The notes: generated by a model from the sequence alone, not told the origin. Positions 1 to 50,136 are shown, counted from the stretch's first letter. The stretch: DNA of 51,462 nucleotides from Gemmatimonadaceae bacterium (GCA_025450815.1 JANWLO010000014.1:1-51462), one strand, 5' to 3'. Made by a program: numbers and translations.

Positions 1-3
1 CGC

Positions 4-19531: not shown

Positions 19532-19900
19532 GTGAAAAAACCCTTGTACTGGATTGGGGGCAGCAAGAAGGGATTGAACGCTAGCCCCGAAGATGTGAAG
19601 GACGTATTTGGATCGGCGCTTCTCGATGTGCAGTACGGCGACACACCGGTGGGTGCGCGGCCGTTTGGAGAGGGCCTGCCACGCGAGATCTGGAAACTTG
19701 TTGATGATTTCGATGGAAACTCGTACCGCGCCGCTTATACTGTCGCGTTTCGAGAGGTCGTGTACGTACTCGACGTGTTCGTGAAAAAGTCGAAGGCTGG
19801 AATCTCTACTCCGCGGGTCGACAAGGAGCGTATTCGAAAGCGCTTCCGCGCCGCCGAACAGCACTTCCACGACAACTACCGAATAACCGGGGTGAAATGA
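19532..19900 (+). CDS. Type II toxin, RelE/ParE superfamily (phage Gp49 / HigB-like, DUF891)
   Basis: VKKPLYWIGGSKKGLNASPEDVKDVFGSAL...FDGNSYRAAYTVAFREVVYVLDVFVKKSKAGISTP matches the Gp49-like toxin family pattern as I recall it. Start placed at the GTG at 19532, not the track start at 19472. There is an ATGA overlap with the next gene. Confidence 0.8.
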   Translation: MKKPLYWIGGSKKGLNASPEDVKDVFGSALLDVQYGDTPVGARPFGEGLPREIWKLVDDFDGNSYRAAYTVAFREVVYVLDVFVKKSKAGISTPRVDKERIRKRFRAAEQHFHDNYRITGVK

Positions 19901-20265
19901 TGCCGGCCAACGCCAAGCGCGAGACGACCAAGCGGAAGATCGAAGTGGAAGCAAGTAGTGGGAATATCTTCGAAGACCTTGGGTTGCCGGATGCCGCCGA
20001 ACGACTGGCGAAGGCCGAAATGGCGCGGGCGCTCCGAAAGATCATCATCAATAAGCAGTGGACTCAGCGCCGTGCGGCGGAGGCCCTCCACATTGCCTCT
20101 TCCGATGTCTCTGACCTCATGCGTGGCAAGCTCGCGCGATTCAGTCGCGAGCGCCTGGAGAGATTCCTCACGGCGTTGGGGATGGACGTCCACATCCGCG
20201 TCGGACCGCGCCGCCCGGGAAAGAAGCGCGCGAGCGTGACCGTCGAGTTTTTGGGTGGGCTCTAG
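19897..20265 (+). CDS. XRE-family HTH antitoxin (HigA-like, HTH_37 type)
   Basis: SSGNIFEDLGLPDAAERLAKAEMA...WTQRRAAEALHIASSDVSDLMRGKLARFSRERLERFLTALGMDV is the typical partner of Gp49-like toxins. Confidence 0.8.
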   Translation: MMPANAKRETTKRKIEVEASSGNIFEDLGLPDAAERLAKAEMARALRKIIINKQWTQRRAAEALHIASSDVSDLMRGKLARFSRERLERFLTALGMDVHIRVGPRRPGKKRASVTVEFLGGL

Positions 20266-20330
20266 CGACCGCGCCGATGCGTAAGTCTCCCGAGCCGACG
20301 AATCGAACGAGCAATCGCGCGCCGGAGCAC

Positions 20331-21074
20331 ATGAGTGACATGCATCTAAGAGACATCCGCTGGATCTTCCCGCTGTTGTGCGTACTCGCCTGTCATCCCA
20401 TTCAAGCCGCACCTCAACCGGGAGCGATCACCGCTGAGTCGCCAAGCGTGACCGACTCGAGCCATGCCGACTGCGACTCGGTGATCGCGTTGTATACCAC
20501 GGTCCTCGCTCGCGGTGCGGTCGACTCGGAGCTTGTGTCAGCGGAGACGCGACTACGCAAGCGCGTCGACTCGCTAGGCGAGCGTCGACCGGAGAACACC
20601 GTGCTCGCGTACGAACTGCCCGGCGGCCGCATCGTGCTGCAGCGAGACTCGTCCGATTTACCCGATAGCGCCGAAGTGAGCTACGCAATTCTAAGGGACA
20701 CCACCGGCCGAGTCCTTCGCGTGTCGGCGAGTCCGTTGAGCGAGTCCGGAGATTGGCTCGTCACCGAGACTCACTATTTCGATTTCGCAGGCTCCACCAT
20801 CACCATGGAACACTACGCGGGATTCTTCGACGGCTGCTCGAGCGAACAGACGGATTCGATTATCGGGATCAAGGAAACGGCGACGTCGTATTTCGATCCG
20901 AAGCACCGGCTCATTCGAAGGTCATTCGTGCGAACAACCTTCGATGACAGCACGCCCGCGCCGGTAAAAAATTGCAATCAGCTCTTCCAGGATTTCTATC
21001 GGATCTACCCGTCGTGGGACTCACTCTCGACCGCTACGGGACTCGGGAACGTCGTCCGTCCAACTCACGACTGA
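20331..21074 (+). CDS. Hypothetical secreted protein
   Basis: Signal-like N-terminus MSDMHLRDIRWIFPLLCVLACHPIQAAP. No recognisable domain. Confidence 0.5.
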   Translation: MSDMHLRDIRWIFPLLCVLACHPIQAAPQPGAITAESPSVTDSSHADCDSVIALYTTVLARGAVDSELVSAETRLRKRVDSLGERRPENTVLAYELPGGRIVLQRDSSDLPDSAEVSYAILRDTTGRVLRVSASPLSESGDWLVTETHYFDFAGSTITMEHYAGFFDGCSSEQTDSIIGIKETATSYFDPKHRLIRRSFVRTTFDDSTPAPVKNCNQLFQDFYRIYPSWDSLSTATGLGNVVRPTHD

Positions 21075-21204
21075 GTCTGCATACAAACGTCAGCGTTGGC
21101 GACAGGCTTGATGCGAGATGGCAGCGACGGTCCGGCATATGCACGCCGTTTCCGTATGCGCTCGAGCTCGAGCGCAGCAATCTCCCAATCAGCTACGGTG
21201 CATA

Positions 21205-21963
21205 ATGATCGCCACCCGTCCCCTGTCGTCCCTCACCGCGCGCACGCTGCTGTTGACCGCAGCGGCCGTCGCAGTTGGCTGTTCCAAAACCGACAAGTCC
21301 GCCTCGTCAGCAACTCCCGATTCGGCGTCGACGACAACCGCGTCGGCCGCCGCACCATCTTCCTCCGGCCCCACAGACATCACCCCCGTTCGCGGCACCG
21401 TCGCAAGCGTCACCGATAGTGTGCTCACCGTCTCGACCGCGAGCGGCGATGTTCGCGTGTCGATCGCAGCACCACTAGACCTGTACTCCAGCGTGCCGGC
21501 CACGCTGTCGAAGGTGAAGGAGAGCTCGTTCGTCGGTGTGACATCAGTAACGCAACCCGACGGCTCGCAGCGCGCCACCGAGATACACATCTTCCCGGAG
21601 AAGCTGCGCGGAACGGGCGAGGGCAGCTATCCGATGACGCAGCGGGGCGCGAGCGCAGGCGGCAGCCACAACACCATGACCAACGGGACCGTGAGCGCCT
21701 CGCGGATGACCAATGGCACCGCCGCGCCACGCATGACCAACGGCACCATCGGCAAACAGTCTGGCGGAACGCTCACGGTGCAGTACCAGGGCGGAACGCA
21801 GACGATCGCCGTTCCGTCGGACGTGCACGTCACCGAGATCGCAGTCTCTCAGACGAAGCTGACGCCGGGCGCGAAGGTGGTCGTTCTGGCGAAAAAGCAG
21901 GCGGACGGCACGCTCAAGGCATCGGCCGCGATACTCGCGGGCGCGCCGGGCAAGACGGGGTAA
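21205..21963 (+). CDS. Hypothetical lipoprotein with three MTNGT repeats
   Basis: Lipobox LTAAAVAVGC after a basic N-region, then a Ser/Thr/Ala-rich linker. Contains three MTNGT units. Start set at the ATG at 21205. Confidence 0.55.
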   Translation: MIATRPLSSLTARTLLLTAAAVAVGCSKTDKSASSATPDSASTTTASAAAPSSSGPTDITPVRGTVASVTDSVLTVSTASGDVRVSIAAPLDLYSSVPATLSKVKESSFVGVTSVTQPDGSQRATEIHIFPEKLRGTGEGSYPMTQRGASAGGSHNTMTNGTVSASRMTNGTAAPRMTNGTIGKQSGGTLTVQYQGGTQTIAVPSDVHVTEIAVSQTKLTPGAKVVVLAKKQADGTLKASAAILAGAPGKTG

Positions 21964-22123
21964 GCAACATCGCGCTCGCGGTATCGGTCAGGTAACCGCA
22001 TCCACCACAACGTCTTGACGAGCATTGCCATTTCTTTGACGTGCACTGCTTATCGTCACGGGACTATCGAGAATCGCGCCGACCCTTTCTCGCGATCTGG
22101 ATCAACTCCTCGAATCCCGGACC

Positions 22124-22639
22124 ATGCCATCGCTTCAACGGATGATCTCACTTGCGCTGCCAGTGCTACTGCTGGCTGCGTGCGCAAAAAAGGACAAGGC
22201 AATTCCGGAGTCCCAGCAAGCTGCGGCGACGGTCGCGAATGCTCCCGCACCGCAGCGACAAACGCCGGTCGCCTGTGCGATGGTCACTCCGGCAGAAATG
22301 TCGACCATCCTCGGCAGCTCCGTCGTCGCAGAGCCGCACGAAGGCAGTTCCAATCAGACACAATGTATTTACAAAGGCACATCGCCACACAGCCCGTACG
22401 TGGAGTTCACCGTGAATTGGGGCGACGGTGAAGGGGCGATGGAGGCACAGGGAATGTTGGGAAAGCAGCAAGCCGGGCTTACTCACGCCTATCCAGGCGT
22501 CGGTGACCAGGCCTATGCGGTCGGTCCCGAGTTGATGATCCGCAACGGTGATGATCTGGTGACGCTACTCGTTCTCGGCGTCACGGACGCTCCCGCCACG
22601 GTAAAGCGGATATTCGACACCGCAAAGCCGAGGATGTAG
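22124..22639 (+). CDS. Hypothetical lipoprotein
   Basis: Signal peptide plus lipobox MISLALPVLLLAAC. 171 aa with no recognisable domain. A 3-nt gap separates it from the next gene. Confidence 0.55.
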   Translation: MPSLQRMISLALPVLLLAACAKKDKAIPESQQAAATVANAPAPQRQTPVACAMVTPAEMSTILGSSVVAEPHEGSSNQTQCIYKGTSPHSPYVEFTVNWGDGEGAMEAQGMLGKQQAGLTHAYPGVGDQAYAVGPELMIRNGDDLVTLLVLGVTDAPATVKRIFDTAKPRM

Positions 22640-22642
22640 GGC

Positions 22643-23752
22643 GTGCGCGCAATGACAATTGTTGGATCCGCGCTTGTCCCGTGCCTTTGCGTTGTTTCGT
22701 GTTCCCGGCACGATGCAGCGACGCAAGTCACGGCTGCTCCAACCACGACCGGAGCTGCGGTCATCTCGACAGCGCGCATTCCATTCGTCGTCGGATTGAC
22801 CGTCGATCTCGCGGTCGGTGAGCCCGTCGGTGACTATGAATCGCTTCATGTCATCGACTCGATCTCGCCGGAACGCTACCGGATAGTGAGATCGGGAGAA
22901 GTTCCCGACGGCTCGGGTGGCCTGATCGACGTGCAGGTGGTACGCACGGTGCGCACCGAAGATCAGCGCAGCGCGCGCGCGATGCGCCATTACTTCCATA
23001 CAGGAGATCCAGAAGAATTCGCCGGTACGACACCCGGTGTGTCGGCGGCGTTCGTGAACGATCTCCGCCGCACCGGCAAGAGCGAGCTGACCTTCCTCGA
23101 TGTGGGCGAAGTGTTCGGAGTGCCGCAGGTCCGTCGAACGCTGTCGGGGACGCTTGCGCGGGTAGAGCCGCAGCCCGTGCCCGTCCCGGTGCTGGTGAAT
23201 GGTCAGGTCGTGCAGTTACCCGCGATTCACGCGAAAGGAAATCTCTCGGATGGCACGACGACGGAAGATTTCGAGCTGTATGTGCTCGACGATTCCGACA
23301 ATCCCATCGTCCTGCGCAAGCGAGGCCCGGGCTTTTCAGCTTCCGTGGTCAAGATCGAATTTCCCGAGCCGCCAGGCGTGCGCGACTCGATCGAGACGAA
23401 ACTTGCCGCAAAGCAGCCCGTTGACGTGTATGGCGTGTACTTCTCATTCAATCGCGCCAACATCCGTGCGCAGTCAGAGCCTGTGCTGCGGGAGATTGCC
23501 GGCGTCCTGAAAAAGAATCCGAGTTGGCACCTTCGCATCGACGGTCACACCGACAACATCGGCGGTGACGCAGCCAACCTCGACCTGTCCCGCCGGCGCG
23601 CGGCGTCGGTGAAGGACGCACTCGTGCGACGCTTCGGCATCGATGCGAGCCGCTTGACCACCGGCGGTTACGGTGCCTCGAGTCCAAAAGACAGGAACGA
23701 CACGCCCGAAGGCCGGGCGCGCAATCGCCGCGTAGAGCTGAGGCGCGAATGA
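22643..23752 (+). CDS. OmpA-family lipoprotein (unknown N-terminal domain plus C-terminal OmpA-like peptidoglycan-binding domain)
   Basis: Lipobox LCVVSC. C-terminus VYFSFNRANIRAQSEPVLREIAGVLKKNPSWHLRIDGHTDNIGGDAANLDLSRRRAASV...ARNRRVEL. GTG start at 22643, with an ATG three codons later at 22652. Confidence 0.85.
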   Translation: MRAMTIVGSALVPCLCVVSCSRHDAATQVTAAPTTTGAAVISTARIPFVVGLTVDLAVGEPVGDYESLHVIDSISPERYRIVRSGEVPDGSGGLIDVQVVRTVRTEDQRSARAMRHYFHTGDPEEFAGTTPGVSAAFVNDLRRTGKSELTFLDVGEVFGVPQVRRTLSGTLARVEPQPVPVPVLVNGQVVQLPAIHAKGNLSDGTTTEDFELYVLDDSDNPIVLRKRGPGFSASVVKIEFPEPPGVRDSIETKLAAKQPVDVYGVYFSFNRANIRAQSEPVLREIAGVLKKNPSWHLRIDGHTDNIGGDAANLDLSRRRAASVKDALVRRFGIDASRLTTGGYGASSPKDRNDTPEGRARNRRVELRRE

Positions 23753-25329
23753 TCACACACTCTCTGTCACGGACTCGCGCTACAACAGTTGCAGCCGCTG
23801 TAGCCCTGGCGTTGGCCACGGCGTGCGGTGGCGGCAATAAAGAGAATGGCGCCCCCGGTACGGCTGGGAGTGCTCCACGCAACAGCGGCGCCTCAGGTTC
23901 CGCGGAGGTGACTTACCGTCCGAACGTGCGCGTGGTCGAGCAGAGTGAGGGAACGAACGCGTTGGTGAGCGTGAGTACTGACGGCTCGACGCTGGTATTC
24001 GACCATTCGCGTGGAAACATTCCGTCGCTCGCGGTTGGCGATGTCCTCATGATCAAGGGATTGCTCGCGAGGAAAATCATTGCCGAGCAAACTGATGGAA
24101 ATGTGACCGCAGTGCTCACCGTTCCAGCCGGCCTCGGTGAGCTCGTGGCGGACGGGAAGATCCGCCTTCAGGCTCCAATTCGCTTTGGCAAACCGCGAAC
24201 CGCCGCAGCGTTTCCGACCCCGCGCCCGCCATGGGAGATGCTCGCGAACGGTCTCGTCGAGCCATTGTACGCGCAGTCTCCCACCGAAGATCGCCGAAGG
24301 GCCGCCGAGCAGAACGGAGTGAACGATGCGTACGGCAACCTCGCCCGCGCTCCATTCAAGGCCCTGATGAGTGGCTGGGAAACCGAGTTCACCGCCGAAC
24401 CCGCCGACGGCCGTGTGAACCTGCACCTGAAGATGACGAAGTCACTCGGCAACGTCGCCGCGGTCGTGGAAGGGACAGGGTATCTGGCTGACTTCGATTT
24501 TTCGTCGGATATCGATGTTGAACGGAGCACGGTGGAGAAGATGCAGGTCGCGTACAAGAAGCTGAACGGCCTCATGGACTTCACGTGGGTGATACAGACT
24601 ACGGAAGGTGGGGCGCTGCGTGGAAACGCCGCCTTCAAGCTGCCGGCAGCAATCGAGATCCCACTGTATCAGTATCTTGGCGGGTTGCCGCTCTATCTCG
24701 AGATCAGCTCCGCAGTACTCATCAAGCCGGGCATCGGAGCGAGCTACGCTTTCAGCCGTGGTGCATTCCGCGTCACGTACGATGGATATCAGACTTTCAG
24801 TGTGATGAAAGGCGTCGCCGATGCGGACGGAAGTGTTACTGGCGATGTCAAGCTACTCGCATCCGAGAATGGCTCCGCCACGCCGTCGGCGCTCATCCTC
24901 ACGTTCGCTGCTCCCCGAATTGAGCTGAGCATCGGCGTGAGCAAGGTGTTGAAGTTCGAAGGAATCAAGGAAGGGGCCGCACAGGCCGATAAGTACTTCG
25001 ACATTCTTGCCACGAGGGCGTTCGGCGCGGAGGGTCTCGCAAAATTCAAGAGCTCCCCCTTGAGCAAGGTCACGGCGACGAAGATCGTTGACGACGCAAT
25101 GGGAAGCGAGGCGGCCGCCCATCTCGAGCTCATCACCACCAGCGGCACCAGTCACACCGGAAACGCCGTGTTGTCTCCCTGCACGCGCACGGACCTTCAC
25201 ATGTGGGTAAAGGTTGGCGCGTCGGCGAAGGCGTTGGGGGAGTCGGTTGGCAACGTGGAAAAGGAGATCTACAAAAAAGACTTCACCAAAATCGAGCCGC
25301 CGAACGATGCGCTCTGCAAGAATCTCTGA
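23749..25329 (+). CDS. Large hypothetical lipoprotein (526 aa)
   Basis: Lipobox ALALATAC followed by a Gly/Asn/Ser linker. No recognisable domain. ATGA overlap with the OmpA-family gene. Confidence 0.6.
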   Translation: MITHSLSRTRATTVAAAVALALATACGGGNKENGAPGTAGSAPRNSGASGSAEVTYRPNVRVVEQSEGTNALVSVSTDGSTLVFDHSRGNIPSLAVGDVLMIKGLLARKIIAEQTDGNVTAVLTVPAGLGELVADGKIRLQAPIRFGKPRTAAAFPTPRPPWEMLANGLVEPLYAQSPTEDRRRAAEQNGVNDAYGNLARAPFKALMSGWETEFTAEPADGRVNLHLKMTKSLGNVAAVVEGTGYLADFDFSSDIDVERSTVEKMQVAYKKLNGLMDFTWVIQTTEGGALRGNAAFKLPAAIEIPLYQYLGGLPLYLEISSAVLIKPGIGASYAFSRGAFRVTYDGYQTFSVMKGVADADGSVTGDVKLLASENGSATPSALILTFAAPRIELSIGVSKVLKFEGIKEGAAQADKYFDILATRAFGAEGLAKFKSSPLSKVTATKIVDDAMGSEAAAHLELITTSGTSHTGNAVLSPCTRTDLHMWVKVGASAKALGESVGNVEKEIYKKDFTKIEPPNDALCKNL

Positions 25330-25338
25330 GGACAGTCG

Positions 25339-28299
25339 CTACGGCAACGGCGCAGCCTTGTTCTCGACATCGCTCCGTTGTTCCGCGACGCCGCGCGTTA
25401 CGCTCGCAGGCAGCTCCGCGAGTTGCCGGCGGACGCGCGGGTCAGCGTTGCGCCAGGCAATGATGACGTAACTTGCGTACACTCGCGCGCTGTCCTTCGC
25501 TCCGGCGGCGGCGAAGGTGCGCGCCATCTCGAAGTCCAACTCGCTGCGCGGAACGTACAGACCCATGGCGGCTAGCTGCGCCTCGTACGCATTACGCAAC
25601 GTGGTGATCGCGTCCGATGCACGCCCTTGCGCGAGTTGCGCACGTGCAAGATCGACGACGGTTCGCGTCCAGCCGGAGCGTCCCCAGCGGGCCTTCCCGA
25701 ACTCCGTCTCGGCCTCCGGCCAACGCCCAGCCGTCATTGCGATCAGACCACGCACATGATGATACAGTCGCCAATCACGCGCATAGTAGCTTCGGGCACC
25801 GATCGCCTGGATCGAATCGGCGAGCGCCGCCAGACGTACGGTGTCACGACTTCCCGCCCGCCACAACGCGTCGGCGAGTAGCGCTCGCGGCCACGTGAAG
25901 GTGCGGGCCCAGTCAGCCGAAAAGCTCTGCGCACCATCACTGCCGCGCGATGCCGGCTCACGCGGCACGGCCGCCACAAAATCCCGCTCGGCTCCAGCCA
26001 GATCGCCCTCACTCGCTCGGGTGTCCCCCTGCACGAGTAGAAGCCAGTTGGAGTCGGCCGGACTGCGCCGCAATGCGTCTTCGAGTACATGCGTGGCGGC
26101 ACTCAACGCTCCGCGCTCACGCAGCAGCAGCGCACGCAGCTCCGCCGTGTTGGATGTGAATCGCGGATCGTTCGAGGACTGCCAGTCATGCAATGCACTG
26201 TCCGCCTTTTCGTAGCGGCGGCCCTCGATCAGGCGGCGGATTGCATCCAGGGCGAATTCTGGATCCGTTGGCGCGAGTGTACCGGCCCGACGTCCCGCCG
26301 TCACAGCATCATCGTAACGACCCCGAGCGGAGAGGACGGCACCGAGTTGCGCCCATGCCTCGGGATCTTCCGGCCTCAGCGACGTCGCACGCCGAGCGGC
26401 GGACTCCGCCCGAGCGAGATCGCCCGTGATGCTCGCTGCCTCCGATATCGCGCGATACCCGATGCACACTCCACAGACCTCGTTCCCCGCCGCGCGACCG
26501 GACGAATCGAGCGCAATGGCGCGCTCGGCGACCTCAATTTCCTCAGCGAAGTGTCCGTGCAGCGACAGAATTTCCATGGCGCGCACGTATGCTCGCGGGT
26601 CGCGAGGATATCGCGCGAGCAGCGCGCGGCTGAGCGCTTCAGCCCGCGCATGGTCTCCGGTGTGAAGGGCCACGTATGAATCGACGTACAGCCGTTCGAA
26701 GTCGGTAGCGCGCTGTCGGTGTTCGAAGTACGCGTGGTCCAGAGCGCGTACGCTATCGACCGCGGCCGTATCGTACACCGCTCCGAGCATGTACCGGCGC
26801 TCCATTACCGCGGAAACGAACCCGGAGTCGGTGGCTATCGCTTCATCGAGCGCGGCAGTCGCCTCCAGTGTCTGGAACTGTCCGCGAAGCTGGAGCGCGC
26901 GAAGATATGATCGGTATGCACTCACTGCGTTCGGCTCGAGCTCCGCGAACTGTGCGCCGCCATCGTGCATGTCGAGGCTGGCAACGAGACGTGCCGTGGT
27001 CTTCGCGATCACGACATCAAGGGCCGTGTCGGTGATCGTCACGTGGCGAATGCGACGGCCTTTGCTCACATCCGTCAGCGACGCATCGAGCCAGTAGTAT
27101 CCTCCCCCAACGGTGACGCCACCAGTCAGCAGCCATCGTGCGCCCAGTTTGCGCGCGGCCGCAAGTGCGTCTGCTCCCGACGGCACTCGAGATGTGTGGC
27201 CGTCGGGAATCATGTCACGCAAGCTCGCAGGCTCCACGACATCGATGACGCTCACGACGTGCTCGCGAGATAGCGCGGCGTCGAGGAGTCGCGGAGTTTC
27301 GGTCGCCAGCCACGCATCTCGTGTCTGTCCCACAACTTCGAACGGCATGATCGACAGCGAGCTGTTGTCGGACGCGCCCGAACGACCGAGAGACTTGGGC
27401 AAGGCGAGGATGAGCAGCGCAGCAAAACCGGCGGCCGCAGCCGATGCGGCAATAAACCAGGTGGTTCGCCGCCTCATCGTCCGTCGTCGCGATGGCGGTG
27501 CCCCGTTGTCGGGCGAATCGGCGACGGATATCGGCACGATGATCGACGGCGCAATCTCCGTAAGCACGACGCTCCGCCGTGCGATCTCGTCGGCGGCCGC
27601 CGAGACCGATGAATCGGGCATCAGCTCGAACTCCGAGGCCAACCGCTCGGTGATGTGCTGATACTCTCGCGTCGCTAGACGTAGTGCATCAGCAGTGCCG
27701 GGGGCAGCGAGAGCGTGCAGCAGCTCCAGCGCGGGTTTGGGATCGAGCGGCGCCGCGCTGAGCCACCGGCGGGCCAACTCGGCGCAGTCAATCTGCGCGC
27801 CTGAATCCCTCAATCGTGCGCACTCCGGAACGCACGCGGCGATGAATCTCGACTCGAGCATCGAGCGTTGGGCGTCGGTCCATTCCTCAAACGAGCGTGC
27901 ACCGCCGCTATGCACGCCATCGAGAAACGGACCTGTATACAACTCGGCGACTTTCTTCGTGTCACCGGCCATCGACGCGGAGACGAGCGCTAGCGCATCC
28001 ACCGAAAGCGGCGCCGACGCAGATGCCGACAACAAGACGCTGTTCGATCGTTGTGGGATCGACTCCGGGCCGAGGAGCTGGCGCAGCCTCGACAGCGCCT
28101 CGCGCATGGAGTGTCGCGCGCGGTCCTCATCGCGATCGCCCCAGAAGAGCTCGGCCACGTGATCGCGAGAGAGCGGCTTCGTGGCGAGAGCAAGATAGGT
28201 CAGCAGCGCGAGAATGCGCGGACCCAGGGACGAGACTGCGCGTCCATCCTCATCCAGTAGCGCGAGGCCGCCCAGTGTAATGAGACGATAGCGCGGCAT
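25339..28299 (-). CDS. Membrane-anchored SARP/BTAD-type transcriptional regulator with a periplasmic TolB-N-like module and TPR repeats
   Basis: N-terminal wHTH+BTAD pattern (RILALLTYLALATKPLSRDHVAELFWGD...ARHSMREALSRLRQLLG). One TM helix (WFIAASAAAAGFAALLILAL). SLSIMPFEVVG...RWLLTGGV module, followed by many TPR-like helices. Confidence 0.8.
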   Translation of the reverse strand: MPRYRLITLGGLALLDEDGRAVSSLGPRILALLTYLALATKPLSRDHVAELFWGDRDEDRARHSMREALSRLRQLLGPESIPQRSNSVLLSASASAPLSVDALALVSASMAGDTKKVAELYTGPFLDGVHSGGARSFEEWTDAQRSMLESRFIAACVPECARLRDSGAQIDCAELARRWLSAAPLDPKPALELLHALAAPGTADALRLATREYQHITERLASEFELMPDSSVSAAADEIARRSVVLTEIAPSIIVPISVADSPDNGAPPSRRRTMRRRTTWFIAASAAAAGFAALLILALPKSLGRSGASDNSSLSIMPFEVVGQTRDAWLATETPRLLDAALSREHVVSVIDVVEPASLRDMIPDGHTSRVPSGADALAAARKLGARWLLTGGVTVGGGYYWLDASLTDVSKGRRIRHVTITDTALDVVIAKTTARLVASLDMHDGGAQFAELEPNAVSAYRSYLRALQLRGQFQTLEATAALDEAIATDSGFVSAVMERRYMLGAVYDTAAVDSVRALDHAYFEHRQRATDFERLYVDSYVALHTGDHARAEALSRALLARYPRDPRAYVRAMEILSLHGHFAEEIEVAERAIALDSSGRAAGNEVCGVCIGYRAISEAASITGDLARAESAARRATSLRPEDPEAWAQLGAVLSARGRYDDAVTAGRRAGTLAPTDPEFALDAIRRLIEGRRYEKADSALHDWQSSNDPRFTSNTAELRALLLRERGALSAATHVLEDALRRSPADSNWLLLVQGDTRASEGDLAGAERDFVAAVPREPASRGSDGAQSFSADWARTFTWPRALLADALWRAGSRDTVRLAALADSIQAIGARSYYARDWRLYHHVRGLIAMTAGRWPEAETEFGKARWGRSGWTRTVVDLARAQLAQGRASDAITTLRNAYEAQLAAMGLYVPRSELDFEMARTFAAAGAKDSARVYASYVIIAWRNADPRVRRQLAELPASVTRGVAEQRSDVENKAAPLP

Positions 28300-28397
28300 T
28301 TCGCGAAGCTACGGAAGCGCGGCTGGAGGCGCCAGGCTGCAATAGGTCGCGGGCTGCGACGTAGCCGCTCAATCGTCTCGCAGCGGCCGCACCTAGA

Positions 28398-44626: not shown

Positions 44627-47002
44627 CTACTTCGGCGGATCGGGGTCGGCGATCGTTGCGGTGATCTTGAGCAGGTAGTCGTCCCCGTCGCGCGAGTTCG
44701 TCTCGAATATGATGAAGCCGCTGTCCGATGCCTGGATGCAGTGCCGGGAGCGAAACTCGACGGTGGTAATCGCGCTCTTCTGCGTGTCCAGGCGGCGCTG
44801 CATGGCGCCCACGCTCAACACCCGCCCCTGATCGCTCGGCACCGTCTCCGCGCCGAATGCGCCGAACTCCACGAAACCCTTCGGCTGATTCGCCTTGTTG
44901 AACAACTCAATGGGGAACACCGACATCTCGCGCGCCACGGCGCACGCGATCTCGTTCTTCTTCGCGTCGTCGCTCTCCTGGAAGTCCACATCGTTATCCC
45001 ACACGACGATGCGCCGCTGCCCTATCAGATCGGACGCCGCCTGATTGAGGAGCCTGCGAAAATTGTCGTCATCCAGCTGCTCCTGCAGCTTCTTGAAGTT
45101 GCCGAGCAGCTGCGGAGGCACGACGTCGCCCAGCTTCTTCTTCAACAGCTCCTTGATCGTCTTCTCGGTTTCCTGATCGAGATTGATCACACCGCCGACA
45201 GCCAGTCGTCGATCCTTCGATTGGTCCGCCGTATCCACGGACCTCTTCTCCTCCAGGAACTGTCCGAAACCCAGGCGCCGCATCCCGCTGGCGGTGATGA
45301 ACACGCCCTTCTCCGGCGGAAGGAAGAGCACGATGCCATTGTCGTCGGGGAACTGCTGCAGCGAATCGCTCGGACGATCGAAGTCCTTTGACGGGCTGGT
45401 GGTCGGAACGAAGATCATTCGCCCGTTCACGCAGACGGTCATGCGAAGATTGTCCCGCTCCCTCAGAAACGTCAGCTTGGCGAGCTTTACCGTCACCTTC
45501 TTTACTCCAGTCGACGCGCCGGGTGCGAGCCAGCCCATCGACAGCGTGAAGCCGTAGCCGTCGAAGTTGTCCGGGATGTCCTTCATGGGGATGGTGATCT
45601 TCACCATTCGCGGCAGCGAGCCATCGGCCGGCTGCACGATCTGAATCACCGGCGACTGCTGGTGCCACCTGAGCGGCGAGTCGAGGCCGGCGCCGTACGG
45701 CGCGAACTCGATCTTCTGGAGGAGTCGCGGGCGAATCACGAGCGTGTTCAGCGCAAAGTCGCCTACCGCGCCAATGTCGTAGCTGATGTCGCCGGATGGC
45801 GCGGGCGGGAGATCCACGGCGAACTCGTAGTTCTCTTCGTTGAACGGGAGATGTTTCCCGTCGAAGTTCATGTAGCCGCCCTTGCGGCACGTGAAAAACG
45901 AGAAGCGCACTACCGGAATCGGCTCGTCCGCCTCCTCGAAGAGCTGCGCCTCGTAACGCGCAGTCGCGAACGCCTTCACTGGATTGATGAGCGTCGGATG
46001 ACGGTCGTCCTCATCCTTCACACCATCCTTCAACGCGTGCGTGCAATCGTAGACGTACCGGCCGGCGGCCCAGAACCAGTCACCGGACTGCGGCCAGAAC
46101 GGCCAGCTCTTGTCGTAGAAAATCGCCGGATGCGTGAGCACGCTGCTTCCGGCATCCGTGGGAGGCGTCGAGAAGGCGCCGACATCGAGGAGGCACTCGA
46201 GATGCGCCCTCGAGCCCTCGTAGATCTCGATCGCCCGCGTCCGGTTTTCCGATGACTGGTCCGCCTCCAGACTGTTCTCCTCCGCCGTTCTGGTGTTGAA
46301 CTTCCCGATCAGATGCTTGTACCCCACCATCGGATCGACGTGAAACGCCCAGTGATAGTGGCGGCTCCACTGCGTGTACGGACGGTGATGATGGGTCTGG
46401 TAGCTTCGCAACAATCGCCCCTGCACCTCCACTTCTGCCTCGCGCCCGTTGACGACGTTGTGCGCCTCCTCCGCATCGAACTGCGGGCCGTATGCGATGC
46501 GATTAACCGGCACCCAGCTCGGGATGAACTTCATGAAGCCGCCGAAGAGCCCGGACTCGAGCAGCTTCGAGAGAAAATCCTTGAGCTCTTGCTCGAAGTC
46601 CCGTCCCGTCTTGTTCTTGAGCTGACTCTTGAGCTGATCGAGCGCCACCTTCGCGCCGGGGATCGCGTTCGTGACCGCGAGCTCCAGCCCATCGATGAGC
46701 GCGCCGACGATGGCGTTGCCGAGGATGCTCGACTTGAAATCGCTCGAGTTGCGGCAGCCGCAGTCGCGTCCTTTACCGGACGGTCCGATCTTCGCGGGCG
46801 TCGGCCCGACGTCGACTTGTGCGTCGTAGCTGCGCGAGCCCAGTCGATGAAAGGGACGGAAGAGGGGATCGTAGCGTTTCTGATCCTTGCGGAACGGTCC
46901 GTTGTTCGCCTTGAGCAGGGGCGGCGGCGCGGCGACGGTCGAGGGCGCTGGTGCGGCGCTCGCACCCGAGCTGGAGCTCGGCTCCGCGGAGTCAGGAGCC
47001 AT
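44627..47002 (-). CDS. Large hypothetical protein (791 aa), no recognisable domain; candidate PAAR-associated cargo
   Basis: Long ORF with normal, Lys/Asp/Phe-rich composition and an 11-nt overlap with the upstream OmpA/PG-binding gene. The N-terminus is Ala/Pro/Ser-rich with no signal peptide. Distinctive patches: QTHHHRPYTQWSRHYHWAFHVDP and WPFWPQSGDWFWAAGRYVYDCTH. Confidence 0.7.
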   Translation of the reverse strand: MAPDSAEPSSSSGASAAPAPSTVAAPPPLLKANNGPFRKDQKRYDPLFRPFHRLGSRSYDAQVDVGPTPAKIGPSGKGRDCGCRNSSDFKSSILGNAIVGALIDGLELAVTNAIPGAKVALDQLKSQLKNKTGRDFEQELKDFLSKLLESGLFGGFMKFIPSWVPVNRIAYGPQFDAEEAHNVVNGREAEVEVQGRLLRSYQTHHHRPYTQWSRHYHWAFHVDPMVGYKHLIGKFNTRTAEENSLEADQSSENRTRAIEIYEGSRAHLECLLDVGAFSTPPTDAGSSVLTHPAIFYDKSWPFWPQSGDWFWAAGRYVYDCTHALKDGVKDEDDRHPTLINPVKAFATARYEAQLFEEADEPIPVVRFSFFTCRKGGYMNFDGKHLPFNEENYEFAVDLPPAPSGDISYDIGAVGDFALNTLVIRPRLLQKIEFAPYGAGLDSPLRWHQQSPVIQIVQPADGSLPRMVKITIPMKDIPDNFDGYGFTLSMGWLAPGASTGVKKVTVKLAKLTFLRERDNLRMTVCVNGRMIFVPTTSPSKDFDRPSDSLQQFPDDNGIVLFLPPEKGVFITASGMRRLGFGQFLEEKRSVDTADQSKDRRLAVGGVINLDQETEKTIKELLKKKLGDVVPPQLLGNFKKLQEQLDDDNFRRLLNQAASDLIGQRRIVVWDNDVDFQESDDAKKNEIACAVAREMSVFPIELFNKANQPKGFVEFGAFGAETVPSDQGRVLSVGAMQRRLDTQKSAITTVEFRSRHCIQASDSGFIIFETNSRDGDDYLLKITATIADPDPPK

Positions 47003-48722
47003 ACTCGGTCCTCAGCCGATCGATCGTGGGATCATCGAGCTGGCCGTTCACCGTCAGCTTCTTGTCCTTCTGGAAGCGCTTCACGAATTGTGCGAGCTGC
47101 ACATCGGTCCACTCGAATGGCTTCGCGATGCCATAGCCCAAATTGAACAGCCGCTGCCGCGCGCCAAAACCCTTCTCGTCGGGAGCGACGGCCAGCTCGC
47201 CGGCATCCGGCTCGAGCTCGTCGGGCGCGCCGCTGACATCGGCCTTTCGCACGATGCGCTGCAGGTTGCCTCCGAATATCGGAAACGCCACGAACGACTT
47301 CTCATCCTTGAACGGATCCGAGAGGTCGTCCGCCTTCTCGGCCGCTGGTGCCTCGATGTCGATGGACGCTATCGGCTTCCCGTCGCTCCCCTTCTTGTTC
47401 GGATCCACCGGTGGCAGCGAGCCGAGCATCGCGGCCGCGAGGTCGAGCTTGAGCGTCATGCTCGCGATGGGGACCCAGAGCGGTAGTCCGATGATCCCTT
47501 TTGACGACGTCGTGCCACGAATCACCGGAGCGGTGTCCTCGCCCGACATCACCGCGACATAGCGCACGTTTGCCAGCGGCTTGAGCGCGCCGCCGTCGCG
47601 GCCCTGCTGTCTCGAGCCGTCGATCTTGAGCTGCAGCACCCACATCTGCAGATCGCGCTCGCACGGCGAGTGCTGCGCGAGACCATGGTAAAATCGGCAC
47701 GCGAAGGTCTTCTCGATTTGCGCGATGCGCTCATCGTGGTTGCGCACCGCCTTGCCGAAGCGCCGCCGCTTGTCTTCGATCTGCTTCAGCCGGCGATCAT
47801 TGCCATCGGACCAGAAGTGCGCGACGCACTTCCCGATTCCCTCGGATGCGCGCGGACACGGCCACTTCTTCGGATCGATCTTCGTTCCCTTCTCGAAGAA
47901 ATAGATGATCGTTCGACGATTGTCGAAGTTCGCGTCGTGCCGGCGCGCCTTCCCGTTCTCCTTGTCCTTCGCGAAGTCATCGGTTTCGCTCTTCGCGAGC
48001 ACCAGCTGGAGGTTGAAGCTGCTGCACCCCTGAAACGCACCGTGCTTATCGCCTTCGCCCAGGAAATCGGCCTTCTCGAGTTTGTACGGCGTGCCTTGCG
48101 CATCGCTGCAGAGAAAATCCATGTACTCGGCGAACAGCTTCGTCCGCAGCGCCTTGTCGTTTCGCCCCGACGGCGCAAGTCCGCGCGAGCTCTGGTAGCG
48201 TTTGATCACGCCGGCGAGCTTCTCCTTCTTGTTCGCGTCGGCAGTGAACGCCAACGCTCCGAGCATTAACTCCACCGAGTCGTCGCCCCACACGTCACCG
48301 GCGGTTTTCGAGTGGTCCGAGAAGAGGCGCTCCCACGTCGGCACATCGCGAATCAGCATCCCGAACACCGATTCGGCCCGCCGCTCGCTCAGAAACTTGT
48401 TGTAGACGACATCGCCTTCCGGATCCGCGTGACCGAAGATCGACGCTGGCGATCCGGGGTGCCGATCGATGATCCCCTTGAGCGCCGTGAACGCGTCCTT
48501 TGCCTGCGGGGCGAGCACCGACGAGTCGAATGCGTAATGCGCGCCCGGAACATCCTTGCACGCGACAGTCACCAGTGAGCGGCGGATCGCGTTGAAGTTG
48601 CTCTTTTGCGCATCCGGGAAGGGCGCAGCGAGCACCGGCAGCGTGAGCTTGGGCGGATGATCGGCAGCGATGCCGCCGTCATCCTGCTCCACCATGTCCG
48701 GGATGAATATTCCCTCACCCAT
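46992..48722 (-). CDS. OmpA-like plus PG_binding_1 domain protein without a signal peptide (576 aa)
   Basis: OmpA_C-like block YAFDSSVLAPQAKDAFTALKGIIDRHPGSPASIFGHADPEGDVVYNKFLSERRAESV. C-terminal PG_binding_1-like RQRLFNLGYGIAKPFEWTDVQLAQFVKRFQKDKKLTVNGQLDDPT. The N-terminus MGEGIFIPDMVEQDDGG is acidic and not signal-like. Confidence 0.75.
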   Translation of the reverse strand: MGEGIFIPDMVEQDDGGIAADHPPKLTLPVLAAPFPDAQKSNFNAIRRSLVTVACKDVPGAHYAFDSSVLAPQAKDAFTALKGIIDRHPGSPASIFGHADPEGDVVYNKFLSERRAESVFGMLIRDVPTWERLFSDHSKTAGDVWGDDSVELMLGALAFTADANKKEKLAGVIKRYQSSRGLAPSGRNDKALRTKLFAEYMDFLCSDAQGTPYKLEKADFLGEGDKHGAFQGCSSFNLQLVLAKSETDDFAKDKENGKARRHDANFDNRRTIIYFFEKGTKIDPKKWPCPRASEGIGKCVAHFWSDGNDRRLKQIEDKRRRFGKAVRNHDERIAQIEKTFACRFYHGLAQHSPCERDLQMWVLQLKIDGSRQQGRDGGALKPLANVRYVAVMSGEDTAPVIRGTTSSKGIIGLPLWVPIASMTLKLDLAAAMLGSLPPVDPNKKGSDGKPIASIDIEAPAAEKADDLSDPFKDEKSFVAFPIFGGNLQRIVRKADVSGAPDELEPDAGELAVAPDEKGFGARQRLFNLGYGIAKPFEWTDVQLAQFVKRFQKDKKLTVNGQLDDPTIDRLRTEYGS

Positions 48723-48758
48723 CGCGCCTGCTCCGCTCTGCGTGTCCGGTTTGCGCGC

Positions 48759-49454
48759 TCACGGAAGATCGTGATCGCCGTGAATCTCGCCGAGCTTCTT
48801 TTTCGTTGCGTCCATTTTCGATCGGTTCTTCGGATCATCGATGTCGCCATTCTGCGGTGCGATGGCGTGATCGTGCTGGAACTCCTCGATCGCCCACCGC
48901 AGCTGCTCCCGATCGAGCTCGTTGAATCCGGCGAAGTAGCCGAGATTGTTGAGCCGAGCTTGTACGCCTTTGTCGGAACGCACGGGGTCGAGCAGCCCGA
49001 TGTGGATCACGAGCAGATCGTCGGCGACCTGGAGCTCCGCGATGTCGGCGTCGTCGAGAATCTCCTGCGACAGCTTCCCCTCATTGTCCGTGTCGAGCTC
49101 GAACTCATCCTCGAGCGACTCGCGACCGTTCTTGTCCTTCGCGTCCACTCGCAGCACGCAGCTCTCGCTCGCACGCGGCTTCCCGTCGATGTCCTGTAGC
49201 TGGATGTTGAGCAGCAGCGCCGGCGACTCCAACGCGAACACGTGCCGCTCGGCGTCGTTGCCGTGCGCGACGTTCTCGGGCAGATCGGGCACGAATACGA
49301 CATCTCCCGACTCGAGGATGTGCGGGTTGTGCCGAACCTTTCGGAGGTTGGCGTTCCCCGCATCGTTCCAGATGGTCAGGAAATTGGCGAAACCGTTGTC
49401 CGCGGCGATGCTGGAGAGGGTTTCCCCCGGCTCGACCGTGTGCTGATGGCTCAT
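48759..49454 (-). CDS. LysM plus PG_binding_1 domain protein without a signal peptide (231 aa)
   Basis: LysM: HTVEPGETLSSIAADNGFANFLTIWNDAGNANLRKVRHNPHILESGDVVFVP. C-terminal PG_binding_1-like VQARLNNLGYFAGFNELDREQLRWAIEEFQHDHAIAPQNGDIDDP. Confidence 0.8.
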   Translation of the reverse strand: MSHQHTVEPGETLSSIAADNGFANFLTIWNDAGNANLRKVRHNPHILESGDVVFVPDLPENVAHGNDAERHVFALESPALLLNIQLQDIDGKPRASESCVLRVDAKDKNGRESLEDEFELDTDNEGKLSQEILDDADIAELQVADDLLVIHIGLLDPVRSDKGVQARLNNLGYFAGFNELDREQLRWAIEEFQHDHAIAPQNGDIDDPKNRSKMDATKKKLGEIHGDHDLP

Positions 49455-49551
49455 CTGATGCGTCTTGGCTATCGGGGAGGTGGCGGGCCTCGCAGATTGT
49501 AGCCTTCCGGGAGGCGAGCGGCCAGATCAATAGCCCGAATTCGAGAGACGC

Positions 49552-50136
49552 ATGCCGCCAGCAGCGCGACTGAGCGACAACCATATCTGTCCGATGCAGA
49601 CGCCCGCGGTGGTGCCGATTCCGCACGTCGGCGGTCCAATCCTGGGACCCGGCGTGCCGAACGTGCTGATCGAGGGTATGCCGGCGGCCGTCGTCGGCGA
49701 CATGTGCATGTGCGTGGGTCCACCAGCAACCATCGTGAACGGTTCGACCGGCGTCCTCATCGCCGGCCGCGCCGCCGCGCGACTCGGTGACCCCACAGCG
49801 CACGGCGGCTCGATCGTCGGCCCTGGCGCGGCCACGGTGATCATCGGCGAGATGGGGAGCGGCAATACGAAGTCGGTGATCGGCACGCCGGCGTCTGGCG
49901 AGCGGGACGATGGCAGCACCGCGGAAGGCACCAAGTCGTCGTGGATCGAGATCCAGATGAACGACCGCGGCGGGTTCGGCCTGGCCAACACCAAGTTCCG
50001 CCTCGAAACCGCGGCGGGAAAAATCATCGAGGGCGTGACGAACGGAAACGGCCTCGCGCGCGTGGAAGGGTTAGACCCGGGCAACCACAAGATCAGCTTC
50101 CCCGATCTTCCTCCCGACGGTTGGAAAAAGAAGTAG
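49552..50136 (+). CDS. PAAR-domain spike-tip protein with a roughly 95-aa C-terminal beta-sandwich (transthyretin/CarboxypepD_reg-like) extension
   Basis: MPPAARLSDNHICPMQTP..PHVGGPILGPGVPNVLIEGMPAAVVGDMCMCVGPPATIVNGSTGVLIAGRAAARLGDPTAHGG is a canonical three-repeat PAAR pattern. The tail FRLETAAGKIIEGVTNGNGLARVEGLDPGNHKISF looks TTR-like. Confidence 0.85.
   Translation: MPPAARLSDNHICPMQTPAVVPIPHVGGPILGPGVPNVLIEGMPAAVVGDMCMCVGPPATIVNGSTGVLIAGRAAARLGDPTAHGGSIVGPGAATVIIGEMGSGNTKSVIGTPASGERDDGSTAEGTKSSWIEIQMNDRGGFGLANTKFRLETAAGKIIEGVTNGNGLARVEGLDPGNHKISFPDLPPDGWKKK

Follow-up and report, generated by a model that had tools for sequence, protein, structure and literature searches.

A conserved PAAR-linked gene island in Gemmatimonadaceae, a probable auxiliary T6SS cargo module with peptidoglycan-binding proteins

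The island and its four proteins

The window analysed here is a stretch of 51,462 nucleotides from a Gemmatimonadaceae bacterium (GCA_025450815.1, JANWLO010000014.1), in which a plus-strand PAAR gene lies divergent from three minus-strand genes, hereafter the trio (Table 1). The original prediction, made from the sequence alone, had listed these four ORFs, and all of them are present at the coordinates and on the strands it gave, as are the 36-nt gap between the 231-aa and 576-aa genes, the 11-nt overlap between the 576-aa and 791-aa genes, and the 97-bp divergent spacer, which is the presumed site of the promoters of both the PAAR gene and the trio. A promoter and terminator scan of the island found no sigma-70-type promoter consensus, an absence that says little in Gemmatimonadota. 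The domains named in the prediction (PAAR, LysM with PG_binding_1, and OmpA-like with PG_binding_1) are real according to Pfam, some of them being firm only at the level of the family.

Table 1. Genes, intergenic region and protein domains of the island (positions in the window)
Feature	Residues	Position	Strand	Basis
791-aa protein, putative payload		44627-47002	-	ORF call
Disordered N-terminus	1-30		-	
Conserved N-terminal motif	36-90		-	
Amphipathic and borderline-hydrophobic helices, low confidence	93-159		-	model
Large beta-rich core	160-575		-	many invariant Trp, Asp, Glu and Cys residues
Helical plus beta C-terminal region	578-791		-	
OmpA-like/PG_binding_1 protein, 576 aa		46992-48722	-	ORF call
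N-terminal beta-hairpin, conserved	10-21		-	
OmpA-like PG-binding domain	~50-130		-	Pfam below threshold, Foldseek
Cys-rich helical region	~130-350		-	invariant C233, C289, C299, C342, C354
Transthyretin-like sandwich	~360-430		-	Foldseek
PG_binding_1	522-570		-	Pfam
LysM/PG_binding_1 protein, 231 aa		48759-49454	-	ORF call
PG_binding_1	~158-210	48825-48983	-	Pfam just below threshold, family
LysM	~3-57	49284-49448	-	Pfam just below threshold, family
Divergent intergenic region, 97 bp, between PAAR gene and trio		49455-49551		ORF coordinates
PAAR-TTR protein, 194 aa, predicted spike tip		49552-50136	+	ORF call, PAAR_motif E 1.5e-21
PAAR domain	~1-100	49552-49851	+	PAAR_motif profile
Transthyretin/prealbumin-like beta-sandwich, C-terminal	~122-194	49915-50133	+	profile, BLASTP alignments

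The PAAR_motif profile (PF05488) matches the 194-aa protein in two stretches with 76.8 bits against a cut-off of 27, and residues 1-100 align with PAAR proteins encoded beside VgrG in other genomes (loci L002, L003 and L005). A Gly/Ser-rich linker joins this domain to the C-terminal beta-sandwich, to which BLASTP aligns free-standing 94-aa proteins from other islands (E = 2e-11) and which also matches VgrG C-termini (E = 1e-30 to 1e-35); the same domain also ends VgrGs upstream of other trios. Its family profile matches residues 782-815 of PDB entry 6sjl_A (E = 4.9e-4), which we take to be the EAEC VgrG whose transthyretin (TTR) domain binds Tle1, and also the VgrG2b fragment 6h56, and the family members match CarboxypepD_reg (10/24) and SpaA (7/24) in Pfam. 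The C-terminus of the PAAR protein is therefore predicted to be a TTR-like domain of ~70-90 aa, of the type that extends spike proteins; PAAR proteins extended in this way form an established class. The domain is found on PAAR, on VgrG or alone, in tandem in one locus (L025), and the module is always adjacent to it.

In the 231-aa protein, LysM and PG_binding_1 enclose a beta-rich middle and both score slightly under their Pfam thresholds; in its family PG_binding_1 is found in 22/28 members and LysM in 11/28, and the family also has PDB matches to LysM and PG-binding domains. A LysM-bearing tube initiator or baseplate protein of eCIS or phages (Afp7/Pvc7/gp53-like) was considered and rejected, as the phage tail-tube initiator 9g8s_T resembles the 231-aa protein in LysM alone (E = 0.022), the C-terminal half is PG_binding_1, and no eCIS or phage tail genes occur among the window genes scanned.

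The 576-aa protein belongs to a family of at least 793 proteins. Its PG_binding_1 scores 35.9 bits (threshold 23) and its OmpA domain (PF00691) 25.7 bits against a threshold of 27.2, OmpA being assigned in most homologues. Foldseek matches the AF2 model (pLDDT 83.6, pTM 0.83) to transthyretin and to OmpA-like domains (PorE, OmpA and TagL 5m38), with a probability of 1.00 for the C-domains of PorE and OmpA. D100, N108, L111, R114 and R115 of the OmpA-like motif NxxLSxxRA, presumably the residues that bind DAP, are invariant in 50 sequences of the family, and the domain is predicted from the model to fold like the C-domain of OmpA, with its Asp and Arg motif for PG binding conserved. OmpA-like domains and PG_binding_1 are peptidoglycan-specific. 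No toxin or catalytic fold was recognised in this protein with Pfam, NCBIfam, PDB sequences or Foldseek.

The 791-aa protein, in which the original prediction could place no motif, indeed has no match in Pfam, NCBIfam or PDB sequences. Its AF2 model is confident (pLDDT 79.5, pTM 0.82), and Foldseek searches of PDB and BFVD with this model returned nothing at E <= 0.001, the best match having an E value of 0.016. The protein has 56 close homologues, and 370 representative clusters were found by profile. A 3,032-aa 'fusion' of the family in L038 was discarded as a wrong-frame ORF in high-GC DNA, rich in Arg, Ser, Thr and Pro and free of domains. A peptidoglycan hydrolase of the Tae, Tge, M23 or lysozyme-like kind was likewise rejected, no amidase, glycosidase or peptidase domain being recognisable beside the binding domains with Pfam, NCBIfam, PDB or Foldseek.

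The trio is signal-less throughout, yet it carries five PG-binding domains (among them LysM, OmpA-like and two PG_binding_1). A signal-peptide-like N-terminus was found in 0/52, 0/50 (576-aa), 0/45 (231-aa) and 0/12 members of the island's four families, and no clear transmembrane (TM) segments occur in the cargo families, the median of the maximal 19-residue hydropathy being 1.17 in the 576-aa family. The possibility that these are ordinary Sec-exported envelope components with mis-called starts did not hold, since none of the ~150 family members checked is signal-like at its N-terminus; moreover, none of the listed ORFs can be made any longer.

The absence of contractile-machine core genes from the window was upheld in two ways. 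A Pfam scan of 20 other large window genes, which left aside ~15 smaller ORFs, detected no contractile-machine core, eCIS or phage tail genes, and six-frame searches with home-made profiles of VgrG, ClpV, TssF, TssG and TssC found none of these genes. Matches of the 'VgrG' profile in the window and in other orphan loci are due to the C-terminal TTR-like domain that they share, and not to the gp27/gp5 regions.

Composition, synteny and selection

Relative to its surroundings, the island is rich in Lys (6.2 vs 2.5 %), Asn (4.0 vs 2.3 %), Asp (8.4 vs 5.6 %) and Phe (5.0 vs 3.3 %) and poor in Ala (9.1 vs 13.9 %) and Arg (5.7 vs 8.6 %). This bias had been noted from the sequence, but the accompanying GC contrast was overstated by hand counts, the actual values being 62.8 % for the island and 65.6 % for the remaining window. 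The GC dip is a consequence of amino-acid content (GC2 of 0.33-0.43) and not of foreign codon usage, as the GC3 of the island genes (0.82-0.84) equals that of the flanks (0.80-0.89), and a foreign origin by composition was accordingly rejected. The island had also been thought to be horizontally acquired, which is not supported: its GC3 is native, mobility genes do not flank it, and at least 10 Gemmatimonadaceae genomes have it at the same place in the chromosome, between DUF72-SURF1-ACAD and DUF5916-f13. The proteins of these genomes have diverged to 56-66 % identity. Comparison with the closest relative gives dN/dS ratios of 0.05-0.06 for every gene, and comparison with an 80 % relative gives 0.14-0.27 (0.05 for the 791-aa gene and 0.135 for the PAAR gene), values resembling that of the neighbouring gene; all island genes, including the PAAR gene, are under purifying selection.

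Homologous loci in other genomes

When the neighbourhood of homologous loci was examined, the minus-strand genes showed a strong association in other genomes with VgrG, PAAR and the T6SS core. The refuting test that the original prediction had set for itself thereby turned out in its favour. Loci were recounted by gene map, and four that a length filter had automatically flagged as 'core' (L011, L019, L025 and L038) were taken out by hand; on this count, true T6SS core genes lie within 10 kb in 15/47 non-redundant trio loci, a further 13/47 have only PAAR or DUF4123, and a further 6/47 have only a TTR gene. The trio follows TssF-TssG-ClpV-VgrG(-PAAR) in four Acidobacteriota loci (L003, L023, L035 and L040), ClpV-VipA/B-VgrG in Methylomirabilis (L018), and TssB-TssC of a divergent sheath in L002, L004 and L005. 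L019 and L050, which are 100 % identical over 6,963 bp and were merged, have a trio that abuts a Gemmatimonadales T6SS core (TssB, TssC, VgrG, TssG, TssK and ClpV); here, a single polypeptide PAAR-TTR-LysM/PG_binding_1 is encoded beside the genome's own core, a Rosetta-stone fusion. Related loci have DUF4123 adaptor genes near the trio, and a 5.9-Mb Acidobacteriota contig holds two islands that have no PAAR or VgrG within 10 kb and only a stand-alone TTR gene. The divergent sheath (PF17541 type) is widespread in Gemmatimonadota, being 77-100 % conserved among the best 120 of 749 matches.

Several trio copies and paralogous modules are present per locus or genome. In the paralogous modules, the LysM/PG_binding_1 and OmpA-like pair recurs with unrelated third genes, two of which have metzincin signatures and one a weak beta-lactamase-fold match; a family HMM, a short-variant HMM and BLAST gave no signal that these variable genes are remote relatives of the 791-aa family. 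The composition that the original prediction did not recognise turns out to be a widespread conserved module, and the TTR-like putative docking domain of its PAAR protein had been overlooked.

A small, exported gene conserved downstream, as would be expected of immunity, was not found for the 791-aa family across the loci. DUF5916 was rejected in this role, as it follows the 791-aa gene in Gemmatimonadaceae only and is broken up in L001, where the island is intact, and a HEAT-repeat partner is unlikely to be a periplasmic immunity protein because it lacks a signal peptide. The missing linked immunity gene is atypical for an antibacterial effector.

Proposed role, alternatives and significance

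The island is probably an auxiliary ('orphan') T6SS cargo module: a spike gene and adjacent cargo lie outside a core cluster, and their homologues are T6SS-associated elsewhere. The first proposal, of cargo linked to PAAR and acting in a target periplasm as its domains for cell-wall binding suggest, is supported by these homologues and by the signal-less families. The proposal that the island is self-contained is not supported, as a PAAR island requires a T6SS encoded elsewhere, and the phylum-wide sheath and the purifying selection are the observations from which we infer one in the source genome. In the mechanism we propose, the PAAR protein would cap a VgrG spike whose gene lies in another part of the genome, and its TTR-like domain would dock the LysM/PG_binding_1, OmpA-like/PG_binding_1 and 791-aa proteins as a multi-subunit cargo, a role for the domain suggested by the constant adjacency and the L019 fusion. 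Sheath contraction would then carry this complex into a neighbouring diderm's periplasm, where it may be fastened to the prey sacculus by LysM, which would hold the glycan strands, by the OmpA-like domain, which would hold the DAP stem peptide, and by the two PG_binding_1 domains. The 791-aa protein would most likely be the active payload that attacks the envelope or cell wall, possibly by acting on glycan, since its invariant core is rich in Trp, Asp and Glu. LysM-bearing T6SS cargo of Acinetobacter provides a precedent (PMC6838775). The recurrence of the LysM/PG_binding_1 and OmpA-like pair suggests a reusable PG-targeting carrier whose payload partners, some of them metzincin-like, are swapped. 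A further reading, which we offer only tentatively, is that this pair is a generic, TTR-loaded, cell-wall-homing T6SS carrier with interchangeable partners in soil phyla (Gemmatimonadota, Acidobacteriota, Methylomirabilota, Myxococcota and Planctomycetota), the 791-aa protein being a new-fold envelope enzyme or a non-toxic tether for which no linked immunity gene would be needed.

Alternatively, the trio could be a structural accessory, its PG-binding proteins serving to anchor the T6SS of the producer or to guide it through the producer's cell wall, like TagL, TagN, TagP and evolved TssL, which also have an OmpA-like PG-binding domain encoded in the T6SS locus; it might even replace a missing membrane complex in these phyla. 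T6SS loci commonly encode accessory proteins that bind PG (PMC13584744), in L002, L004 and L005 the trio separates the sheath genes from the remaining cluster, and its OmpA-like domain resembles, among others, the PG-binding domain of TagL. However, TagL-type proteins work in the producer itself, either anchored in its membrane or exported (PMC13584744), whereas the 576-aa family has neither a signal peptide nor a TM segment, and without signal peptides and clear TM segments the Sec route to the producer's periplasm is closed to the trio. No trio stands between TssC and VgrG in the Gemmatimonadales core cluster, several copies and paralogous modules with variable third genes are present per locus or genome, orphan copies lie far from the core, and L019 has the small protein as a fusion with PAAR; we regard an accessory role as improbable. 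That the island is a relic, its genes being left over or co-opted T6SS-independently in a genome lacking any contractile injection system, would agree with the lack of core genes in the 51 kb and within 10 kb in ~10 syntenic Gemmatimonadaceae loci and, weakly, with the 398-kb contig of L001 not being among the best 120 of the 749 sheath matches. It is nevertheless very improbable in view of the low dN/dS of all genes, the intact full-length ORFs in at least 10 species-level genomes, and the widespread conserved sheath.

A non-bacterial target or a non-toxic cargo, for example an effector against fungi or other eukaryotes that binds chitin or glycan, or a 'harpoon' delivered by the T6SS to tie the attacker to the prey wall, would need no immunity gene and so would explain why no conserved candidate was found; LysM domains also bind chitin (PMC6838775), and no toxin fold is recognised in the 791-aa model. 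On the other hand, immunity genes may be unlinked or unrecognised, and paralogous modules have metzincin-like partners typical of antibacterial cell-wall effectors. The invariant OmpA-like motif and PG_binding_1, with their specificity for peptidoglycan, also speak against this explanation, and we judge it unlikely.

As an auxiliary cargo module, the island is of a familiar kind, while its widely conserved three-protein cargo has not been described previously; neither the trio nor T6SS effectors of Gemmatimonadota appear in the publications searched. It shares with the orphan VgrG-PAAR islands of Acinetobacter, Vibrio and Pseudomonas a spike component away from the core with adjacent cargo, an organisation described before (PMC13098142), and homologues of the module also occur inside main T6SS clusters. 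It differs from them in lacking a recognisable effector-immunity pair, in having three conserved proteins as cargo in place of one effector, in being old and syntenic instead of mobile, and in the sheath of the host phylum, which is of the divergent PF17541 type. The C-terminal TTR domain of the EAEC VgrG mediates Tle1 binding (PMC10433429), and a similar sandwich of ~70 residues sits here at the extreme C-terminus of a spike protein (compare 6SJL/6SK0/6SKI); unlike in that system, the domain shuttles among PAAR, VgrG and genes of its own, is present in tandem copies in L025, and has as its presumed partner a PG-binding protein set and not a phospholipase.

V. cholerae VgrG-3 is a T6SS cell-wall effector that bears a PG-binding domain. 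In VgrG-3 and the Acinetobacter effectors, the binding domain and the hydrolase are in one polypeptide and come with immunity proteins, whereas the binding domains of the window module are on two carrier proteins, and the large partner has no recognisable catalytic fold. The Acinetobacter effectors (LysM-M23, LysM-amidase and LysM-lysozyme) are likewise signal-less with PG-binding domains; they are delivered by the T6SS and exert their effect in the periplasm of the prey (PMC6838775).

The module combines a mobile, spike-borne TTR-like domain, a signal-less carrier pair with multiple PG-binding domains, and apparently swappable payloads, of which the 791-aa protein is the commonest. Knowledge of T6SS rests almost wholly on Proteobacteria and Bacteroidota; the module is conserved across several soil phyla that are abundant but poorly cultured, and it suggests a way of organising cargo that has yet to be described. 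If the 791-aa protein is an ordinary toxin whose immunity gene lies elsewhere, the island would be just another auxiliary effector island. If the proposed role is confirmed, effectors in soil phyla could be found by searching beside the carrier pair or the TTR gene, a new cell-wall-directed activity could be characterised, and the module would provide a test case for the mounting of multi-protein cargo on a PAAR tip. Should the pair be a generic carrier, it would represent a class of multi-subunit effectors that differs from the effector-immunity pairs known in Proteobacteria, where the effector is a single polypeptide.

Architecture, composition and age of the island

The four open reading frames of the island lie where originally predicted, two of them overlapping by 11 nt, two separated by 36 nt and the divergent pair by a 97-bp spacer, and the domains assigned to the four proteins were confirmed by database searches. 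The 194-aa protein contains a PAAR domain (E 1.5e-21). In the 576-aa protein PG_binding_1 (PGB) exceeds the Pfam threshold and OmpA falls slightly below it, with family-level and Foldseek support; in the 231-aa protein both LysM and PGB are slightly below threshold and firm at the family level, where, of 28 relatives, Pfam finds PGB in 22 and LysM in 11. Furthermore, Foldseek gives probability 1.00 to the match between the OmpA-like domain in the 576-aa model and the C-domains of PorE and OmpA, and the canonical motif residues D100, N108, L111, R114 and R115 do not vary across 50 sequences; the marginal LysM, PGB and OmpA calls become solid because of these family-level counts, the Foldseek match and the invariant residues. 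The 791-aa protein, reported earlier to carry no placeable motif, indeed has no match in Pfam, NCBIfam or PDB sequences. In agreement with the original prediction, no T6SS or eCIS core gene was found elsewhere in the window: a Pfam scan covering all but about 15 smaller ORFs shows 20 other large genes to have housekeeping, envelope or regulatory functions, and six-frame profile searches for VgrG, ClpV, TssF, TssG and TssC matched only the transthyretin-like (TTR-like) C-terminal domain of the PAAR protein.

Coordinates of island genes and of other features in the window and at homologous loci of other genomes, MAGs or contigs (L handles)
Sequence	Position	Strand	Feature
Window	49552-50136	+	PAAR gene
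Window	48759-49454	-	231-aa LysM/PGB protein (trio)
Window	46992-48722	-	576-aa OmpA-like protein (trio)
Window	44627-47002	-	791-aa protein (trio)
Window	10746-19227		AddAB-like pair: 1169-aa UvrD-helicase/PD-(D/E)XK and 1109-aa PD-(D/E)XK proteins
Window	18136-19227		WYL-domain protein near the AddAB-like pair
Window	19900-28300		Block of lower GC and GC3
Window	22643-23752		Canonical OmpA C-domain protein (E 3e-23)
L001	12662-13779		DUF5916 gene broken into 112-aa and 207-aa fragments; four island genes intact
L002	5251-7073		Sheath protein
L050	9534-11335		Sheath protein
L007	8918-14082		Module copy
L008	6913-11986		Module copy, gene order permuted
L019	6823-8253		476-aa PAAR/TTR-like/LysM/PGB fusion ORF
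L025	1688-2767		PAAR with two tandem TTR-like domains
L035	11596-12900		HEAT-repeat protein

The original prediction had described the island as a horizontally acquired, self-contained module of deviating composition, and most of this description was not supported. The amino-acid bias is real; the GC contrast is only small (62.8 % in the island vs 65.6 % in the rest), and GC3 in the island genes (0.82-0.84) equals that of the flanks. The proteins closest to the 791-aa protein come from Gemmatimonadota metagenomes and MAGs, and one chromosomal context, DUF72, SURF1, acyl-CoA dehydrogenase, the divergent PAAR gene, the trio, DUF5916 and a 298-aa gene, is common to the window and the syntenic Gemmatimonadaceae loci L001 and L009-L016, among which the proteins have diverged to 56-66 % identity. 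No mobility genes flank the island. Against a 96 %-identical relative (dS ~0.4) the dN/dS of island genes is 0.05-0.06, and against an 80 % relative it is 0.14-0.27, with 0.135 for the PAAR fragment (0.12 for the adjoining DUF5916 gene); all island genes are thus under purifying selection. Shared synteny, diverged proteins, selection and the lack of mobility genes argue together, from sequence comparison, for an old, vertically inherited island, and against both a recent import and a relic in decay. The view of it as self-contained is not supported either.

Elsewhere in the window, a block whose GC (0.60-0.65) and GC3 are lower than in the remainder encodes a DUF3558-like protein (below threshold), unannotatable proteins (265, 281 and 526 aa) and, on the opposite strand, a 986-aa TPR protein; by composition, it is a better candidate than the PAAR island for foreign or specialised envelope DNA.

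Cargo proteins and their partners

A signal-peptide-like N-terminus was found in none of 52 791-aa, 50 576-aa, 45 231-aa and 12 stand-alone TTR family members, by a test that does recognise the one encoded by the adjoining DUF5916 gene. The signal-less set nevertheless carries a LysM, an OmpA-like domain and two PGB domains, which can meet peptidoglycan only outside the cytoplasm; delivery of the trio by a T6SS would resolve this paradox. The 576-aa model (pLDDT 83.6, pTM 0.83) consists, in order, of a conserved N-terminal beta-hairpin, the OmpA-like domain, a Cys-rich helical region, a transthyretin-like sandwich and PGB; the helical region matches nothing, and its C233, C289, C299, C342 and C354 are invariant. 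The model of the 791-aa protein is also confident (pLDDT 79.5, pTM 0.82) and has no Foldseek match at E<=0.001 in PDB or BFVD. Its conserved core (about aa 140-600), matched by 370 representative clusters, has many invariant Trp, Asp, Glu and Cys residues, and near residue 93 there is a single helix of borderline hydrophobicity. The cargo proteins show no recognisable catalytic fold.

In paralogous modules the pair of LysM/PGB and OmpA-like proteins is found again beside unrelated third genes, two with metzincin signatures and one with a weak beta-lactamase-fold match. This suggests that the pair is a conserved, peptidoglycan-homing carrier for exchangeable payloads directed at the envelope, the 791-aa protein being the commonest of these. 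Across the loci no conserved immunity-like gene was found beside the 791 family, which, like the lack of a recognisable catalytic fold, does not fit the cargo model; DUF5916 was rejected as an immunity gene, being lineage-specific, and broken up in L001, where the island is intact. In Acidobacteriota and Myxococcota, short variants of the 791 family (576-716 aa) without the C-terminal region are followed, usually at <=35 nt, by a ~430-aa HEAT-repeat protein (L035, L037, L041-L045, L047, L048), whose N-terminus is conserved and which lacks a signal peptide; its candidate roles are chaperone, cytoplasmic immunity, or substitute for the missing C-terminal domain.

The TTR-like domain of the PAAR protein

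The last ~70 residues of the PAAR protein form a domain that recurs at PAAR C-termini in related loci, as stand-alone genes of 94-183 aa beside other modules (BLASTP 2e-11), and at the ends of the VgrGs preceding the trio in L002, L003, L017, L018, L023 and L030 (E 1e-30 to 1e-35). Its profile matches a P. aeruginosa VgrG2b fragment (6H56) and residues 782-815 (E 4.9e-4), the C-terminus of the 841-aa T6SS protein in PDB 6SJL chain A; single members match the CarboxypepD_reg and prealbumin-like SpaA families. 6SJL is the EAEC VgrG-Tle1 complex, in which, as on the window PAAR, a C-terminal TTR-like domain sits on a spike protein. In EAEC VgrG, the C-terminal TTR domain mediates Tle1 binding (review, PMC10433429). 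By analogy, the TTR-like domain of the PAAR protein may be a docking domain, and would be the key link of the island to a cargo function. Furthermore, the single ORF of L019 joins in frame PAAR (residues 1-100), TTR-like (146-216) and LysM/PGB (235-468) domains, a Rosetta-stone indication that the small LysM/PGB protein may travel on the spike tip.

Association with T6SS loci

Gene maps were made for 47 non-redundant loci with a 791-family gene, and counts were curated by hand, with false "VgrG" matches via the shared domain taken out. The proposed neighbourhood check gave true T6SS core genes within 10 kb of 15 of the 47; 13 more, the window among them, have only PAAR or DUF4123, six have only a stand-alone TTR-like gene, and the rest are mostly short contig fragments. 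L011, L019, L025 and L038, called core-gene loci by an automatic filter, were left out, the flags being long stop-to-stop frames with the TTR-like domain. In Acidobacteriota (L003, L023, L035, L040) the order is TssF, TssG, ClpV, VgrG, PAAR, LysM/PGB, OmpA-like and 791-family; in a Methylomirabilis MAG (L018) ClpV, VipA/VipB and VgrG precede the trio; in L002, L004 and L005 the trio follows a divergent pair of VipA-like TssB and PF17541-matching TssC, with DUF4123, PAAR and VgrG a few genes off; and in Polyangiales VgrG is directly followed by the 791-family gene. Comparative genomics gives good support to the earlier view that the island encodes PAAR-linked cargo directed at the cell wall of a target. 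One 5.9-Mb Acidobacteriota contig carries two separate module copies (L007, L008), each flanked by housekeeping genes and with a stand-alone 94-aa TTR-like gene replacing PAAR; this gene is their only link within 10 kb, which counts as a misfit to the cargo model.

L019 and L050 share a stretch of 6,963 bp with 100 % identity and merge into one Gemmatimonadales locus. The trio is transcribed to the left; to the right run a 1299-aa OmpA-like protein, a 409-aa protein, a stand-alone TTR gene, DUF4123, a VWA protein, TssB, TssC, VgrG, a 576-aa TssF-like protein, TssG, TssK and ClpV. No trio stands between sheath and spike in this core cluster, which indicates that the machine probably does not require the trio as a structural component. 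A T6SS in the window's own genome is inferred. Between Gemmatimonadales, Longimicrobiaceae and the isolate Longimicrobium terrae, the divergent sheath shows 77-100 % identity (best 120 of 749 matches). The Gemmatimonadota sheath protein matches Pfam PF17541 (TssC), not VipB, and upstream of TssB the cluster carries a VWA-protein gene and a paralogous ~381-aa gene, and it also has TssG, TssK and ClpV; no TssJ, TssL or TssM was seen in the 21 kb covered. This T6SS type appears to be without description in the literature searched.

Auxiliary T6SS islands that combine a spike with cargo and have a TTR-extended PAAR are a known kind of element. The particular conserved multi-protein cargo seen here was not found described in the literature searched; it has a payload of new fold, lacks a linked immunity gene and is widely distributed in soil phyla.
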